This document shows, piece after piece, positions 32,466 through 39,125 of a stretch of DNA of 64,000 nucleotides (the stretch's first letter is position 1; every line of letters starts with the position of its first letter). The translations under genes were made by a program, and so were the position numbers. Source of the stretch: Erysipelotrichaceae bacterium (GTDB lineage: Bacteria > Bacillota_I > Bacilli_A > RFN20 > CAG-449). Location: the NCBI GenBank assembly GCA_015059095.1, contig SVBA01000005.1:30298-94297 (forward strand), written 5' to 3'. The notes under the pieces are model-generated. The model did no database searches and was not told the origin of the DNA. It worked only from the letters and a program-made list of their open reading frames with translations.

Positions 32466-35400
32466 TTAATAATCAATAATAATTGAATCCCAGTATGTTG
32501 CATATCCTAAGTTATTTGTGATACGAACATATTTATATGTAGCAACACTAGCTGTTACTTCATATTCTTTAGTACCTTTAACTGTATTCATTAATACTGT
32601 TTCAGCTTCTGAGAAATCAGCATTATTTGAGAATTCAAATTTCATCATACCTTCATTATCATATGTTGATTTTGTTGCAGCAAAAGTTAATTTAACTGAT
32701 TTAATACCACTTTCAATTGCACTAGCTGTTTCAATTGAAGAAGCAACACCACCATTAGCTGTTTTGTTTCTCATTTGAAGTCCGTTATTAGTACCATCAT
32801 TATTCGTATAACATGAAACTTGAGTATATTTCATTTTAACGCCATCAACTGTAGCTTCACCATCACCATAAGCAACGCTAGTTCCAGCAAAACCCAATAA
32901 TTTTGAACTTGTTAGATTTATTTCAGTTTTACTAATTGAAACCTTAATAAAATAGAGAGAACAAATATATTCAGTAGGATTACTAACTGTAACTTGAGCA
33001 ACATTTGGAGAAACTTCTAATAAATTTCCAGTTAAAGTATGAGCAATTTCTTCACCTGTAGCGTCTGCGCCTTTATGAAATTTAAAGTTGTCATATGTGC
33101 CATATTGTTCAATTTCTAATTTAGAAATAAAGTAACCATCAGGTACACTAATTGTTAATACGTCTCCATCAACATTAGCATTAAAATAGATTGAATCATA
33201 TTCAGTACACAAATTATTAATTGAAACTGTAAAATCAATTTCTTCAGTATTTGAAAAATCTTTTGCTTTCAAAACAACTACTTTTGTTTCTGGTGATTCA
33301 GTCAAATTCAAATCCTCAATTCCAATTTTAGTTTTATATCCATCATAATATTCTTTACAGTAAGCATAATCAAATGCATCTTTTCCTTCTTCTACATTTA
33401 AATAGATTTGATCAATAGTTCTAGTAAGACCTTTATATGTAATAGTTGGGATTAGTTTAAATTCAATTGATTCTTCAAGTTCATCACTTGGTATAGTAAA
33501 TACTACTTTTTGAATACCATCTTCATTTACTAAAGTAACAGTATTAGATGTATCCTCTGTTTCTAATTTCCAATCAAATTTTATTAATTCACCTTCAAAT
33601 AAAATTTCACTATCTAAAGCAAATCCTTCACTAACACTATTATCATCACCCATTGATACAAATAATGCATCTACAAATAGTTTAAAATCATTACCATATG
33701 GATAATCAAAAGTAACATTAGTTAATTGTCCTTGGAAGAATACAATATTTTCCCACTCTTCTTTACTTCCTTCAAAGCAAATTTTTACACTAGGATCATT
33801 AACAGTAATATACTTAGTATCTTTAGGAATTATATAATATTGTGCATTATAGAAATCATAATCTGCAAGATTTATCATCTTTTCATATTCACTATCAATA
33901 TCAAACTTTGTTTCTATAATATCGACCAATTCATATTCATTATTTTCATTTAAACAATATAAATTAGTAGATTGATAATTATAATTTTTAACATTATTAA
34001 AGAAATCTTCTTTTGTTCCTGCATAATATAGTTCTAAAGTATCACAGTCAAAATTAAGTGCAAATGTTCCAATTTCTTTAATTGTTGAAGGTAAGAATAC
34101 CTTATTAACATTTTTCATAAGTGTGAATGAGTAAGGTTGAATCTTTTCAAGCCCTTCTTCAAACCCAATTGATTCAGTAGCCAAGTAATGACCATTACTA
34201 TCTTTAAAATACACATTATTAGCACTTGCAAGTATACTTGAATCAATATGACCTACTTCACTAGCCCAATAATTAATATCAAAATCAAAATATAAATGTT
34301 CAATCTCTGCGCCACTACAACGATCAATATATTCTAATCCTTTTGATAACCATAAAGTATTAACACTTAGATTATTAGCACTTGATATTTGATAAGTACC
34401 TACAATTTCCTCTGGTAAATCAAAGAATATTGAATCATAGTTTCTATCTGTATTGAATGAACCAATATGATAACACTTAATTTTTTGATATTTTACTCCA
34501 TCAAAGAAATATCTTGGCATTAAAACATAATTTTGATCAGTAGGAGCAGAATAATAAGTTAATATATTTTCGCTTGATTGTTCAAAAGAGAAATAACCAG
34601 GAGCAGCGATTAATTCTTCATCCATAATTACAAGTTCTCTTTCAAAAGAAAGAATAACTTCATCATTTTCATTAAGTGCAGAAATAGTAATTAAATATTC
34701 TCCTATTTCAGTAATATTTTCTTTAGATGCAACAATTTTAACATTTGGAATATCATTTGGTAATTCAATGCTATGAGCATTACCATCATAAACAACATAT
34801 TTATCCTCAATATCAAGTAATTTAATTACTTCAAATCCTTCTTTTGATACTCCATATTCAACGCTTACCTCTTTTTGAATTTCGTAAGCTATATCAATTG
34901 ATATATTCTGTTTTATTGCATTATCTTCAAAATAAATAGAATTAGTAAATTCATCGTAAAGAAGATCAAGATAATCCACATTCGAAGTAATATAAATAGA
35001 CTTTAACTTACTTTCTAGTTTTTGGGTAGAAATATAAGGACGACCAACTAGATACAGAGGTCCAAATTGATTACAATCAAAAGTAACTGTTTTTAAATTT
35101 CTAAGTCCTTTTAAACTAGCAGAGTATTTAATTGGTTCATCAATTACTAAATGTTCTATTTCATGAACGTTAATCCACTTATTATTTTCATCTAATACAT
35201 AAAAATTATTTGAACGATTTAAGATATTATCCAAATGAAGATATTCTAATGATGATTTATATTCAATATTTAAAAATTCATTTAATGTACCGTTATAATA
35301 AATTTCATCGACAAGAGACATAATAGGGTTATCTTCTATTTTTTCTAATGAATTAGGTAAATATAAAGTATCTAATTTAGAAGGATCTGCATTTCCCAAC

Positions 35401-36983
35401 ATAGTACAATTTTTTAGAGTAGTATATCCTTCAGGAATAGTCAATTTAGAAACTTGTAAATTACAACCTTCATAATCAAATACAGGTTCACCTTTATAAG
35501 TAGTTGGGAAAGTTAGTTCATCATTATCTCCATAATATCCTATAATTCTATAACCTTTACCAGTTACATAAGAAAGTTCAAGACCTTCTGCAACATTTTC
35601 GTCTTTATTTAATAATCCATTTACTAGATCATTTATCCATTGTTCTTCACTTCCATCATATTCAGGATGATATTTTAAATAAATATCGTATGCAGATTCA
35701 CCTTTTTCACCTTTTAGTAAATCTAAAGAAACTAAATTATTCCAAGATTCATCACCAATATATTTCCATTGAATATAATTTTCACTTACTTGGAAAGTAA
35801 CTTCTCTTCCGTCTTCACCTTTTTCGACAACTAATGATGATAATTCAACTAACTTACTCCAAGATTCATCACTTTCATATTTCCATTCTAATGAGCCATC
35901 ATTAACTTGGAAAATTGGATTTTTACCATCTTTACCTTTTAAAGCTTCAATAGTAATCAAATCTATCCACTCATCACTTGATTCATATTTATATTTAATA
36001 GATTCATCAATCACTTCAACAATGATTTTTTCACCATTTTCACCTTTTTCACCAACTAAAGAATCAAGAGAAATAAGTTCTTTATATTCAGTTTCATCAT
36101 TATAACGATAAACGATATAATTGTCTTTAATTTCAATAATTACTTCTCTTCCATCTTTACCTTTTTCGCCAGTTAAAGTTGAAAGTTCAATTAAATTTTT
36201 CCAAGTTTCTTCACCAACATATTTCCATTTAATGAATCCTTCACTTACTTCAAATGTTACTTCCTTTCCATTTTCACCTTTTTCACCAACTAAAGATTCT
36301 AATGAAACTAGGTTATTCCAAGATCCATCACCTTGATATTGCCATTTTATATAGCCATCAAGAACTTGAAGAGAAACTTGTTTTCCATCATCTCCAGTTT
36401 CTCCTTTATCGCCAACTAAAGACGATAATTCAATTAATACTTTCCATGATTCTTCATTTTCATATTTCCATTGAATTGATCCATCTTTAACTTGTAACAT
36501 TACCTCTTGGCCATCTTCACCATCAGTTCCATCTTTACCATCTGCTCCATCTTTACCAATTAAAGTGTTAATAGAGATTAAATTAGTCCATGATGTATCA
36601 TCTACATATTTCCATTGAATGTGATCCTCAGAAACTTGGAAAGTAACTTCTCTACCATCAATCCCATTTTGTCCTGCTAATTCTGTAAGTGAAATTAGTT
36701 CTGTCCAATTAGAAGAGTTCTTATATTTCCACTTAATTGAATTATCTTTAATAATTAATTCAATCGAATCTCCTTTAATTGATTCAAGCCATTCTTCATA
36801 TGTTCCTTGATATCCTGATCTTTTTGCAAGGTCATAAATATGCTTTTGTTGACTTTCTTCATCATTTTCAATGATTTCACTTGATGAACTATTAGATGAA
36901 ACATTGCAAGAAGTCAATACTCCACCACAAAATAAAACAAGTGAAAGAAAAGGAATCATTATTTTTTTCATTATAGGTTTCAT
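32466..36983 (-). CDS. 1505-aa surface lipoprotein: Gly-X-Y-linked beta repeats, BspA/LRR_5-like region, Ig/MBG-like segment, beta-rich C-terminal domains
   Basis: True start MKPIMKK at 36983 (AGGAG RBS); lipobox LTSC; 9 repeats V.FQV....IQWKY......W..L..L..L.G; LRR-like LYLPNSLEKI and VFLPSTIKEIG. Confidence 0.8.
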   Translation of the reverse strand: MKPIMKKIMIPFLSLVLFCGGVLTSCNVSSNSSSSEIIENDEESQQKHIYDLAKRSGYQGTYEEWLESIKGDSIELIIKDNSIKWKYKNSSNWTELISLTELAGQNGIDGREVTFQVSEDHIQWKYVDDTSWTNLISINTLIGKDGADGKDGTDGEDGQEVMLQVKDGSIQWKYENEESWKVLIELSSLVGDKGETGDDGKQVSLQVLDGYIKWQYQGDGSWNNLVSLESLVGEKGENGKEVTFEVSEGFIKWKYVGEETWKNLIELSTLTGEKGKDGREVIIEIKDNYIVYRYNDETEYKELISLDSLVGEKGENGEKIIVEVIDESIKYKYESSDEWIDLITIEALKGKDGKNPIFQVNDGSLEWKYESDESWSKLVELSSLVVEKGEDGREVTFQVSENYIQWKYIGDESWNNLVSLDLLKGEKGESAYDIYLKYHPEYDGSEEQWINDLVNGLLNKDENVAEGLELSYVTGKGYRIIGYYGDNDELTFPTTYKGEPVFDYEGCNLQVSKLTIPEGYTTLKNCTMLGNADPSKLDTLYLPNSLEKIEDNPIMSLVDEIYYNGTLNEFLNIEYKSSLEYLHLDNILNRSNNFYVLDENNKWINVHEIEHLVIDEPIKYSASLKGLRNLKTVTFDCNQFGPLYLVGRPYISTQKLESKLKSIYITSNVDYLDLLYDEFTNSIYFEDNAIKQNISIDIAYEIQKEVSVEYGVSKEGFEVIKLLDIEDKYVVYDGNAHSIELPNDIPNVKIVASKENITEIGEYLITISALNENDEVILSFERELVIMDEELIAAPGYFSFEQSSENILTYYSAPTDQNYVLMPRYFFDGVKYQKIKCYHIGSFNTDRNYDSIFFDLPEEIVGTYQISSANNLSVNTLWLSKGLEYIDRCSGAEIEHLYFDFDINYWASEVGHIDSSILASANNVYFKDSNGHYLATESIGFEEGLEKIQPYSFTLMKNVNKVFLPSTIKEIGTFALNFDCDTLELYYAGTKEDFFNNVKNYNYQSTNLYCLNENNEYELVDIIETKFDIDSEYEKMINLADYDFYNAQYYIIPKDTKYITVNDPSVKICFEGSKEEWENIVFFQGQLTNVTFDYPYGNDFKLFVDALFVSMGDDNSVSEGFALDSEILFEGELIKFDWKLETEDTSNTVTLVNEDGIQKVVFTIPSDELEESIEFKLIPTITYKGLTRTIDQIYLNVEEGKDAFDYAYCKEYYDGYKTKIGIEDLNLTESPETKVVVLKAKDFSNTEEIDFTVSINNLCTEYDSIYFNANVDGDVLTISVPDGYFISKLEIEQYGTYDNFKFHKGADATGEEIAHTLTGNLLEVSPNVAQVTVSNPTEYICSLYFIKVSISKTEINLTSSKLLGFAGTSVAYGDGEATVDGVKMKYTQVSCYTNNDGTNNGLQMRNKTANGGVASSIETASAIESGIKSVKLTFAATKSTYDNEGMMKFEFSNNADFSEAETVLMNTVKGTKEYEVTASVATYKYVRITNNLGYATYWDSIIIDY
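35700..36780 (-). repeat. Nine tandem 36-48-aa intragenic repeats with short Gly-X-Y linkers
   Basis: Units begin DSIELII, REVTFQV, QEVMLQV, KQVSLQV, KEVTFEV, REVIIEI, EKIIVEV, KNPIFQV, REVTFQV, separated by GEKGENG/GKDGADG runs. Confidence 0.9.
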
Positions 36984-37000
36984 AAAAATTTTTCTCCTTT

Positions 37001-37020
37001 TTTTATTGTTTACAATAAAA
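37001..37020. promoter_or_regulatory. Palindrome TTTTATTGT-TT-ACAATAAAA at the lipoprotein transcription start region (putative operator)
   Basis: Read directly; abuts the -10 box; same TATTGT-N2-ACAATA core as at pulA. Confidence 0.5.
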
Positions 37021-37050
37021 TTATACCCCCCCCCCGTCATATTTTGTCAA
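37020..37050 (-). promoter_or_regulatory. Consensus sigma-A promoter with a G10 homopolymer in the spacer (phase-variation candidate)
   Basis: Minus strand TTGACA-aaatatgac-GGGGGGGGGG-TATAAT; spacer 19 nt; C10 at 37026-37035 on the + strand. Confidence 0.9.
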
Positions 37051-37052
37051 AG

Positions 37053-37076
37053 AAAAATCGCTTTTTACAGCGATTA
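37053..37076 (-). terminator. Terminator after mscS
   Basis: AATCGCT-gtaaaa-AGCGATT plus T run. Confidence 0.65.
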
Positions 37077-37670
37077 TTTCTTAGTATTAATTTCAAGTTT
37101 ATTGTAAGGAATTTTAATATTATTGTCATTTAATGCTTTTCTAACTTGCTCTAATAAATCCCAATTAGCATCCCAATATTCTGGAGTTTTTACCCAAACT
37201 CTAGTATAAATTACTGTACTAGATTTTTCATATGCACCAACTCTAACAAATGGAGCAGGTTTATCTAAAACTAATTGATGGTTATTTACTACATTACTAA
37301 TAATTTCAATAACTTTATTAGCATCTTCATCATATGATATTTCAAATTGAAGATCTAATCTTCTTACATCTTTAGCAGAATAGTTAATTATTACATTAGC
37401 AGATAAATTACCATTAGGAATTGTAACTTGTTTATTATCAAATCCAATAACCCCTAAAAAGACTAAAATAGCTAAAAATTTAAGTACCTTACGATAAGTC
37501 GAAAAAACAGCATTAACTATAGTTTCATCTTTTTTCTTAATCCTTTTCTTATCCCTTTAGCAGTCCAGTTAATGAAAATAAAGATAACAATTAATAAAAC
37601 TAATGCAATAATGAATTTTAAACCAGTCGTTGTGCACCATGCAATAAACTGATTCCATAATTCATTCCAT
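37074..37670 (-). pseudogene. mscS: mscS small-conductance mechanosensitive channel, 3' part (IS-interrupted, frameshifted, internally deleted)
   Basis: Manual translation: WNELWNQFIAWCTTTGLKFIIALVLL..., a frameshift near the A6 run (~37530), then DETIVNAVFSTYRKVLKFLAILVFLGVIGFD|NKQVTIPNGNL..INYS..DVRRLDLQFEISYDED...YTRVWVKTPEYWD..IPYNKLEI. The TM3/beta segment is missing. Confidence 0.85.
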
Positions 37671-37900
37671 TGAACCTCTCATATCTAAAGACACAAGATT
37701 CTTGCTTCAGAGAATAACTAAGGATATTCTCTCCACAAGCGTAACTTCGGGTAGTTCCTACCCTAGATATATTTTATTATTTAATTATGATTTTGTCCAT
37801 AATGTAAAATATTTAAAGATGCATTATAATCTCTATCTATCTTTAAAGAACAATATGGACATTGATATATTCTAGAATCTTTTACTTCATAAGTATTGTT
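37650..37900 (-). ncRNA. Predicted TnpB omega-RNA (right-end RNA) with 3' guide from flanking mscS; 5' boundary approximate
   Basis: Right-end hairpins GGGTAG-gaa-CTACCC, AGAGAATA...TATTCTCT and the terminal CTTTAG stem, then flank ATGGAATGAATTATGGAATC. Confidence 0.65.
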
Positions 37901-39078
37901 ACATCTAGAACATGTTTTACTTGATGGATAATACCTATCTATTTTATGTATTTGTTTATCATACATTTTTGCTTTATATTCTAAAACTTTAATTAATCTT
38001 CCTATACAAGTAGATATTAACTTTCTTTTATTTCTTTTTACTACTTGTTTAGTTATTAATTCTTTTATATTTAGATCTTCTATATATAAAGTATCATATT
38101 CTTTAATTAATGAACTTGTTATCTTATGAATATAATCATTAATAATATTTACTTTATGTTCTTCTATTTTAGCTTTCTTTATTCTTAGTTTCTTTCTATT
38201 AGAAGAATCTATCTTTGTTTTTGATATTCTTCTTTGTAATCTAGTTATCTTTTTTTCTATTTTATCTAGTTTCAATGGATTTACATAAATAACATTATCA
38301 CTAGTCGTCACTAGATTTCTTACTCCTACATCGATTCCTACTTCTTTATTTGTCTTAACTAATGGATTTATATCTACTTCATGAATAATAGAAGCATAAT
38401 ACTTATTTGATGGAGTTCTAGTAACTGTTACACTTATTATTTTTACATCATTAAAAGAATAATGATATTTACATTTAATTAATCCTAGTTTAGGAAGTTT
38501 AATATGTTTAGATAATATCTCGATATTATTATTTGTATAATTAGTTCTAAAACTTTGATATGTATTTTTCTTAGATACATATTTAGGTTTATTAAATCCT
38601 TTTTTAGATTTAAATTCTTTCTTAATATCTATAAAGAAGTTATTATAAGAAGTTTTTAAATCCTTTAATGAATTTTGAAGAACAAACTTATCTACTTCTT
38701 TTAAAAATGAAGTATCTTCTTTTTGTTTTAAAGAAGTTAACTCTTTACTCCAAGAATAATAAGAATAATCTTTGTTAGAAGTTGAATAATCTAAAAAGTA
38801 ATTATAAACATATCTTCTACAACCAAAAAAAGAGTTCATCTTATTAATTTGTTCTTTATTTGGATATAGTCTTATCTTAATTCCTTTTTGCATTATTTCT
38901 CTCCTTGCGTTTTTATAGTAAGTTTTCCTATATATATTATATAGCAAACCTTGATATAGTTCTACAAAAATTTATTTTTTTGTATCTTTGATACAAAAGC
39001 GAGATTATTTTTAGATTATAGATGAAAAGAAAAACCAATTTACTCTCACATTAATAAGAGAGTGGGGGTCGGTTGGTT
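37670..39078 (-). mobile_element. Non-autonomous IS200/IS605-family (IS1341-like, tnpB-only) element
   Basis: Left end begins after TTGAT (39083-39079) with hairpin ACTCTC...GAGAGT; right end GAATC-TTGTGTC-TTTA-GATATGA-GAGGTTCA(A); no target duplication; no tnpA. Confidence 0.9.
37781..38893 (-). CDS. tnpB: RNA-guided endonuclease TnpB
   Basis: Start MQKGIKIRLYPN (AAGGAG RBS); RuvC D (GIDVG), E (IEDL), D (DRDYNASLNI); zinc finger CSRC...CPYC. Confidence 0.95.
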   Translation of the reverse strand: MQKGIKIRLYPNKEQINKMNSFFGCRRYVYNYFLDYSTSNKDYSYYSWSKELTSLKQKEDTSFLKEVDKFVLQNSLKDLKTSYNNFFIDIKKEFKSKKGFNKPKYVSKKNTYQSFRTNYTNNNIEILSKHIKLPKLGLIKCKYHYSFNDVKIISVTVTRTPSNKYYASIIHEVDINPLVKTNKEVGIDVGVRNLVTTSDNVIYVNPLKLDKIEKKITRLQRRISKTKIDSSNRKKLRIKKAKIEEHKVNIINDYIHKITSSLIKEYDTLYIEDLNIKELITKQVVKRNKRKLISTCIGRLIKVLEYKAKMYDKQIHKIDRYYPSSKTCSRCNNTYEVKDSRIYQCPYCSLKIDRDYNASLNILHYGQNHN

Positions 39079-39125
39079 ATCAATAGTAAAATCCCATTTT
39101 GACTATCTTGTAAGTAATTAACCAT
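39079..39125 (-). pseudogene. mscS: mscS 5' fragment left of the IS insertion
   Basis: GAGGTG RBS then ATG GTT AAT TAC TTA CAA GAT AGT CAA AAT GGG ATT TTA CTA TTG AT, ending at the TTGAT target. Confidence 0.7.

Follow-up and report, generated by a model that had tools for sequence, protein, structure and literature searches.

A transposase-deleted ISDra2-type TnpB element inserted 3′ of TTGAT in an mscS gene of a gut Erysipelotrichaceae bacterium

The insertion sequence ISDra2 of Deinococcus radiodurans inserts 3′ of TTGAT without duplicating its target, and the same pentanucleotide doubles as the transposon-associated motif (TAM) of its TnpB nuclease, a protein of 408 amino acids (aa) in which residues Y52, S56, K76, F77, Q80, T123 and N124 read TTGAT. 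Its omega-RNA overlaps the 3′ end of tnpB and finishes G-U-N-C-A-N before the guide, with −6G, −5U to −3C and −2A pairing about 100 nucleotides (nt) upstream in a pseudoknot; the guide is roughly 16 nt of the sequence flanking the right end, with a seed put at about 12 nt in a review. Homing or retention through re-copying after cleavage has been shown for ISDra2 and related elements, the homing model being as given in a published abstract. Precedents exist for TnpBs that read TTGAT (ISDra2, ISYmu1) and for proteins of about 370 aa (ISAam1), and ISYmu1 TnpB (382 aa, TTGAT) and ISAam1 TnpB (369 aa, TTTAA) are described in a review as compact proteins of demonstrated activity that are used as editors. 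Here we describe an element of this type that interrupts an mscS gene in a 64,000-nt stretch of DNA (referred to as the window) from an Erysipelotrichaceae bacterium (GenBank contig SVBA01000005.1). The window has a GC content of 27% and is carried by contig 29 of an assembly of 38 contigs and 1.76 Mb that is 95% complete, and the metagenome runs in which window DNA occurs are from ruminant gut and faeces.

The element belongs to the IS605 group of the IS200/IS605 family and is a tnpA-deleted, non-autonomous member of ISDra2 type. The features by which ISDra2-like TnpB elements of the IS605 group are recognised are present as far as tested, save the transposase, which has demonstrably been deleted, and the subterminal left-end hairpin, which is clear in sister copies but weak and shifted in the window copy. 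The differences from ISDra2 itself are that the window TnpB has 370 aa and no C-terminal tail, that tnpA has been lost, and that the host is a gut bacterium of 27% GC. The principal features, in window coordinates, are these:

37670..39078, minus strand: complete tnpA-less IS200/IS605-family element of 1,409 nt, AACCAACCGAC...GAGAGGTTCAA, delimited by copies and empty alleles
39079..39083, minus strand: TTGAT target pentanucleotide and presumed TAM, read directly, abutting the 5′ side of the element
37781..38893, minus strand: tnpB coding sequence, 370 aa plus stop, from Pfam, alignment to the ISDra2 structure, catalytic and zinc positions, and the ratio of nonsynonymous to synonymous substitution rates (dN/dS)
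37670..37799, minus strand: omega-RNA (right-end element RNA, reRNA) scaffold at its minimum extent, overlapping the tnpB 3′ end, from a covariance model, covariation and a match to the ISDra2 pseudoknot
37654..37669, minus strand: predicted guide of 16 nt, TGGAATGAATTATGGA, at the start of the 3′ mscS flank, from the empty-allele boundary and the ISDra2 rule
39079..39125, minus strand: 5′ mscS fragment with its ATG at 39125 and a 1-nt deletion between 39092 and 39091 (intact alleles GGGACTTTTACTATTGAT, window GGGATTTTACTATTGAT)
37074..37669, minus strand: 3′ mscS fragment with 7-nt and 201-nt deletions, from translations, Pfam MS_channel and alignment to L060, L064 and L065

On the minus strand the left terminus at 39078 reads AACCAACCGAC directly 3′ of TTGAT, the right terminus reads ...GATATGAGAGGTTCAA with 37670 as its last base, and past 37670 the mscS frame resumes as WNELWNQF...; neither junction of the element carries a direct repeat that could represent a target duplication. 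Through contigs encoding members of the 90% identity TnpB cluster, copies at least 95% identical to the element were found at five further sites (L048; L049/L050/L051; L059; L052; L053), and likeness to these begins at TTGAT and stops past TTCAA. All readable left junctions, in the window and at four other independent sites (L048, L049, L059 and L052), read TTGAT|AAC.., so that the insertion mode of the IS605 group, 3′ of a fixed 4–5 nt target without terminal inverted repeats or target duplication, is seen here, with TTGAT at five independent left junctions. The right ends at six independent sites all finish GAGAGGTTCAA, after which the next base varies (T, G, A, A, A, A); the copies alone leave undecided whether the first or the last base, both an invariant A, belongs to the element. 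An earlier note on this DNA, made from the letters of the window, had proposed an element of about 1.41 kb lying directly 3′ of TTGAT (39083–39079) with neither duplication nor tnpA, and this is borne out. It had also taken the element to be ISDra2-like with TTGAT as target and TAM, which the five junctions, the empty site and the conserved contact residues support, and the count of copies and 5′ flanks that it suggested gives the same picture (copies at five other sites, with all four readable left junctions there following TTGAT).

Which A belongs to the element can be read from uninterrupted alleles, which the earlier note had also recommended seeking; these were found by searching with the C-terminal part of the MscS protein and looking up the contigs that encode the matches. 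The search returned intact MscS proteins of 283 aa, 99–100% identical over the shared part, and contigs L060–L067 share the recJ-mraY-murD-mscS context of the window with 96% identity in the flanking DNA. All eight uninterrupted alleles on these contigs read ...ACTATTGAT|TGGAATGA..., joining 39079 directly to 37669 (TTGAT|TGG) with nothing duplicated, and a 218-nt contig from a sheep-gut run (X6) independently gives the same joint of 37669 to the 5′ flank. Because the empty alleles and the X6 joint read TTGAT|TGG, the element ends at TTCAA and spans 39078 to 37670, with TGGAATGAATTATGGA as the start of both flank and guide. JGI metagenome contigs, scanned for exact matches to the empty junction (ACTATTGAT, 0–1 N, TGGAATGAATTATGG), gave none. 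The insertion-bearing allele is present at 100% identity in at least four other metagenome contigs.

The open reading frame (ORF) at 38893–37784 matches Pfam HTH_OrfB_IS605, OrfB_IS605 and Cas12f1-like_TNB, all above their cut-offs (E values of 8.9e-15, 6.4e-21 and 3.8e-21), and its best relatives of solved structure are ISDra2 TnpB (8BF8, 8EXA and 8H1J; E 1.3e-67, residues 3–363) and an AI-designed relative. The RuvC triad D188/E272/D355 aligns on D191/E278/D361 of ISDra2 TnpB, and the zinc finger CxxC..CxxC corresponds to C328/C331 and C345/C348; the 370-aa protein with triad and zinc finger described in the earlier note is confirmed by both comparisons. All seven of the TAM-contact residues are identical (Y45, S49, K69, F70, Q73, T120 and N121). 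By description, the protein is in the same size class as the TnpBs of ISYmu1 and ISAam1, the former also reading TTGAT. Among 400 genomes of the same order the nearest TnpBs are at most 49% identical, and at 90% identity the protein sits in a cluster of 166 members, of which those listed are mostly full-length at 370 aa. Pairwise dN/dS among tnpB copies is 0.14–0.31, tnpA-less copies included, and by this measure tnpB is under purifying selection. The intact ORF, the purifying selection and a right end free of private changes together favour, at the level of prediction, the active nuclease that the earlier note had proposed.

The last 130 nt of the element fold into three hairpins inside a long-range helix (helix 1) that pairs UGGAC with GUUCA. 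A covariance model built from close copies recovers this structure behind TnpBs that are 43–49% identical, with E values of 1e-12 to 1e-14 for L019, L020 and L021 and 3e-6 for L023. In the combined alignment, which was fitted to the model, 97.8% of cells pair compared with 36–46% when the partners are slid, 12 of the 33 pairs are changed on both sides with helix 1 covarying, and none of 500 shuffles attains the observed values. Positions −6 to −2 before the guide take part in the enclosing helix, which corresponds to the ISDra2 pseudoknot; in both cases G-U-U-C-A before the guide pairs with an upstream GGA-type stretch, although the partner lies about 126–130 nt upstream of the guide here and about 102–106 nt upstream in ISDra2. 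The omega-RNA that the earlier note considered readable is accordingly seen as a structured, covarying right end with an ISDra2-type pseudoknot. Rfam RF02269 (HPnc0580, a Helicobacter pylori small RNA listed as uncharacterised) gives a full-length match (model 1–105) at 37778–37671, which ends at the last base but one of the element and shares a UAUCUAG-stem-GGAA-stem core; its score of 26.3 bits is below the gathering threshold of 37, with E between 0.018 and 0.21 by search space, so that the RNA does not count as a member of that family. Our guess is that the HPnc0580 family may itself be an IS605-type omega-RNA. In a bovine metatranscriptome (run X17) a contig of 1,063 nt lies over tnpB, and pieces of the right end match precisely as far as 37670 and then pass into other flanks; as the depth and coverage of the runs were computed from contigs only, they are silent on expression level and RNA ends. 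A 36-nt piece of the right-end RNA core (37731–37766) reaches a depth of up to about 120 in X6 and X17 contigs with unrelated sequence on either side, and is probably a core common to other IS605-type right ends in those communities.

Comparison with sister copies accounts for the missing transposase and defines three further features:

38908..38916, minus strand: tnpA deletion scar, a ATAAAAAC-type repeat, from alignment with L052; the junction is common to all four tnpA-less copies
39030..39078, minus strand: left-end subterminal hairpin, the presumed TnpA binding site, weakened here as judged from DNA folds and private substitutions
38936..38946, minus strand: conserved TGCTATATAAT block, by inferred role a possible extended −10 promoter now driving tnpB

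In the sisters L052 and L054 a Y1 tnpA encoding 131 aa runs up to the start of tnpB. Downstream from the tnpA end, through tnpB and the right end, the tnpA-bearing copies (L052, L053 and L054) are 97% identical to the window element, and they have the TTGAT and TTCAA junctions too; they differ in that they keep the transposase and in a left end that shares only about 79% identity with the tnpA-less lineage. Alignment with L052 shows a stretch of about 375 nt that is missing from the tnpA-less copies; a short direct repeat bounds it on each side, at the tnpA start codon (ATGAAAACT, now ATAAAAAC) and close to the end of tnpA. The same deletion junction is found in the window, L048, L049 and L059, and a single deletion therefore made the non-autonomous lineage, which has since spread to four sites or more, presumably through mobilisation in trans. 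No Y1 tnpA was found within the element or across the assembly, so that the search for a transposase in trans that the earlier note proposed was negative in this genome, whereas the sister elements L052 and L054 have one.

The left end of the window copy has also diverged, with nine private substitutions in 185 nt (4.9%), five of them in the first 42 nt, compared with seven in the 1,113 nt of tnpB (0.6%) and none in the 111-nt right end. As DNA, the left ends of L049 and L052 fold with −9.3 and −8.3 kcal/mol (z about −4), whereas that of the window folds with −4.5 kcal/mol (z −1.5) and a shifted basal stem. With these left-end changes the window copy has probably ceased to be a good substrate for TnpA, and as the genome is also without a detected Y1 tnpA, the copy is probably immobile. 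The TGCTATATAAT block lies just upstream of the tnpA ATG in L052, in a stretch invariant in four of five aligned copies; L059 has TA for GC at the second and third bases (alignment A4, columns 139–140). A scan for promoters and terminators gave no more sites than in shuffled sequence. The TGGACA-17-TAAAAT match within the tnpB 3′ end is a consensus hit only and was set aside.

The explanation that best accounts for the locus as a whole, and that we regard as likely, is that of a tnpA-deleted ISDra2-type element, inserted in trans into mscS, homing by means of TnpB and omega-RNA, and now stranded. A Y1 transposase acting in trans would have inserted the element as single-stranded DNA directly 3′ of TTGAT in mscS without target duplication. 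The tnpB 3′ end and right end would then yield an omega-RNA of at least 130 nt, extended at its 3′ end by flank sequence (TGGAATGAATTATGGA) that would direct TnpB to element-free mscS for cleavage next to TTGAT; homologous repair of the cut would then favour copying the element back in. In the window genome the element is probably stranded, with no Y1 tnpA, a weakened left-end hairpin and an mscS gene that has decayed further. The sole perfect match to the guide in the genome is the mscS flank itself, which follows TTCAA and not TTGAT and so is without a TAM.

Several observations weigh against this explanation. The left-end hairpin is weaker than those of the sister copies, and the assembly holds no Y1 tnpA, although with 38 contigs and 95% completeness this absence is unproven. 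The consensus promoter scan did not list the TGCTATATAAT block. The contigs from the X17 RNA run differ from the window at 11 positions and hence derive from other copies, so that they show presence only, and they could represent contaminating DNA. Finally, in the 20 nt after TTGAT the uninterrupted alleles L060–L067 fall into two haplotypes with one guide mismatch each, so that all eight of the empty alleles known at the DNA level mismatch the guide at position 9 or 12, inside the seed of about 12 nt described for ISDra2, and the sampled empty alleles may not be cut by the window copy. No difference in the guide stretch is reported for the empty X6 contig.

An alternative explanation is that the element is a relic, in which TnpB and omega-RNA look intact only through recent insertion and now do nothing in the host. 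The lack of tnpA in the genome and the eroded left-end hairpin are in keeping with this, as are the genome's second copy, which is a 311-nt 3′ stump, and the three further lesions in mscS, by which the allele is not very young. We nevertheless consider it unlikely that the element is inert, in view of the dN/dS values between copies (0.14–0.31, also for those that lack tnpA), the concentration of private changes in the left end (4.9%, against 0.6% in tnpB and none in the right end), the retention of all catalytic, zinc and TAM-contact residues, and the predominance of full-length 370-aa proteins among the listed members of the 166-member cluster.

A stronger form of the homing explanation is that this minimal 370-aa TTGAT-reading TnpB is fully active, that mscS alleles with and without the element occur side by side in ruminant-gut populations, and that the seed mismatches at positions 9 and 12 are escape variants selected by the nuclease and not neutral divergence. 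We think this doubtful; the strains diverge by 3.5–4%, and at that level the mismatches need no special explanation. If true, the coexisting carrier and empty mscS alleles would offer a natural setting in which to watch TnpB homing.

Domestication, in which TnpB would serve a host function, for example RNA-guided repression as with nuclease-dead TnpB derivatives, and not retention, could be suggested by the presence of TnpB alone, without tnpA and directly behind a conserved promoter-like block, but is very improbable, given that the RuvC triad is intact, that the guide is merely the local flank with no conserved host context, and that the tnpA-less element occurs at several unrelated sites and hence behaves as a mobile lineage. 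The locus is an example of a well-understood system, annotated in full (element, target, guide, RNA scaffold, empty allele and autonomous parent), and opens no new question. Its compact TnpB of TTGAT type, from a gut bacterium of very high AT content, joins the candidate miniature editors, and the copies document the spread of a tnpA-less lineage to several sites after a single deletion.

The host gene has been damaged repeatedly. The mscS ATG at 39125 is preceded by a GAGGTGG ribosome-binding site, and 47 nt extend from it to the end of TTGAT. Within these, intact alleles read GGGACTTTT, X6 reads GGGATTTTT and the window reads GGGATTTT at the 1-nt lesion. Beyond the element, 7 nt have been lost within an AAGAAAA repeat near 37540–37529, which the X6 and X17 contigs keep, and an in-frame deletion of 201 nt between GATA repeats (37440/37439) has cost 67 aa, whose position corresponds to the pore-lining helix and the first part of the beta domain. 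As read from these alignments the gene has been broken four times (by the insertion and by losses of 1, 7 and 201 nt) and is now dead. The earlier note was right that the two flanks are halves of one mscS gene, as the intact 283-aa alleles in the same context with 96% DNA identity show, but missed the three further lesions.

The least credible of the alternatives, to which the earlier note had pointed, is that the element ends at TTCA (37671) with an A starting the flank and guide and an in-frame empty site TTGATATGG, for although from the flanks of the window allele alone no other end keeps ATG 39125 in frame with WNELW, it is refuted by the eight uninterrupted alleles and the X6 joint (TTGAT|TGG, no A), the uninterrupted alleles being in frame through an additional C or T at 13 nt upstream that the window allele has lost, and TTCA is followed by A at each of the six independent insertion sites, much as the ISDra2 scaffold finishes G-U-N-C-A-N before its guide. 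The in-frame junction "TTG ATA TGG" is therefore accidental, since the separate upstream 1-nt loss offsets the extra A. The predicted guide does come from the mscS flank, as had been claimed, but starts with T at 37669 and not with A. In practical terms, a reading frame restored across a pseudogene can be a false guide to element boundaries, which have to be set from real empty alleles.

Some further observations concern the other copies. The stump in the window genome (G000:C32:5711-6021; L002 1501–1811, reverse) is 5′-truncated and retains the last 66 tnpB codons and the right end at 97% identity to the element, terminating in TTCAA with its own flank GAATTAGATGAG next. At this locus metagenome contig L048 has a copy of full length, lying downstream of a CBAH gene, and in the window genome a different ORF abuts the break. 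We looked for the element boundary in other disrupted genes, which gave no answer as the flanks are not simple split genes: at L049–L051 the downstream methyltransferase is without its N-terminal half, and at L059 an S8-protease-like left flank does not carry on past the right end. L049 has an additional upstream IS21-type insertion (IstB and Mu-transposase-like genes) that is absent from L050 at the same element locus. The more distant L019 and L020, with TnpBs 48–49% identical and a Y1 tnpA present, have left ends that begin after TTGAACAC and TTGAATAA and not after TTGAT, and right ends that still finish GTGTTCAA. With left ends that follow TTGAA-type flanks they are uninformative on the TAM of the window element, and these nearest genomic relatives possibly have a different target motif. 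L020 adjoins an apparent tRNA gene, judged by eye.

Downstream of mscS, L064 resembles the window in having a gene of about 1,500 aa for a large lipoprotein, whereas in L060–L063 mscS is followed directly by ftsW-murG-murB-ftsQ without it; the large gene therefore varies in presence within this cell-division and cell-wall cluster. Between mscS and the giant lipoprotein ORF of 1,524 aa (32466–37040), a poly-G run at about 37040–37055 (minus strand) has ten G in the window and nine in the colinear L064.

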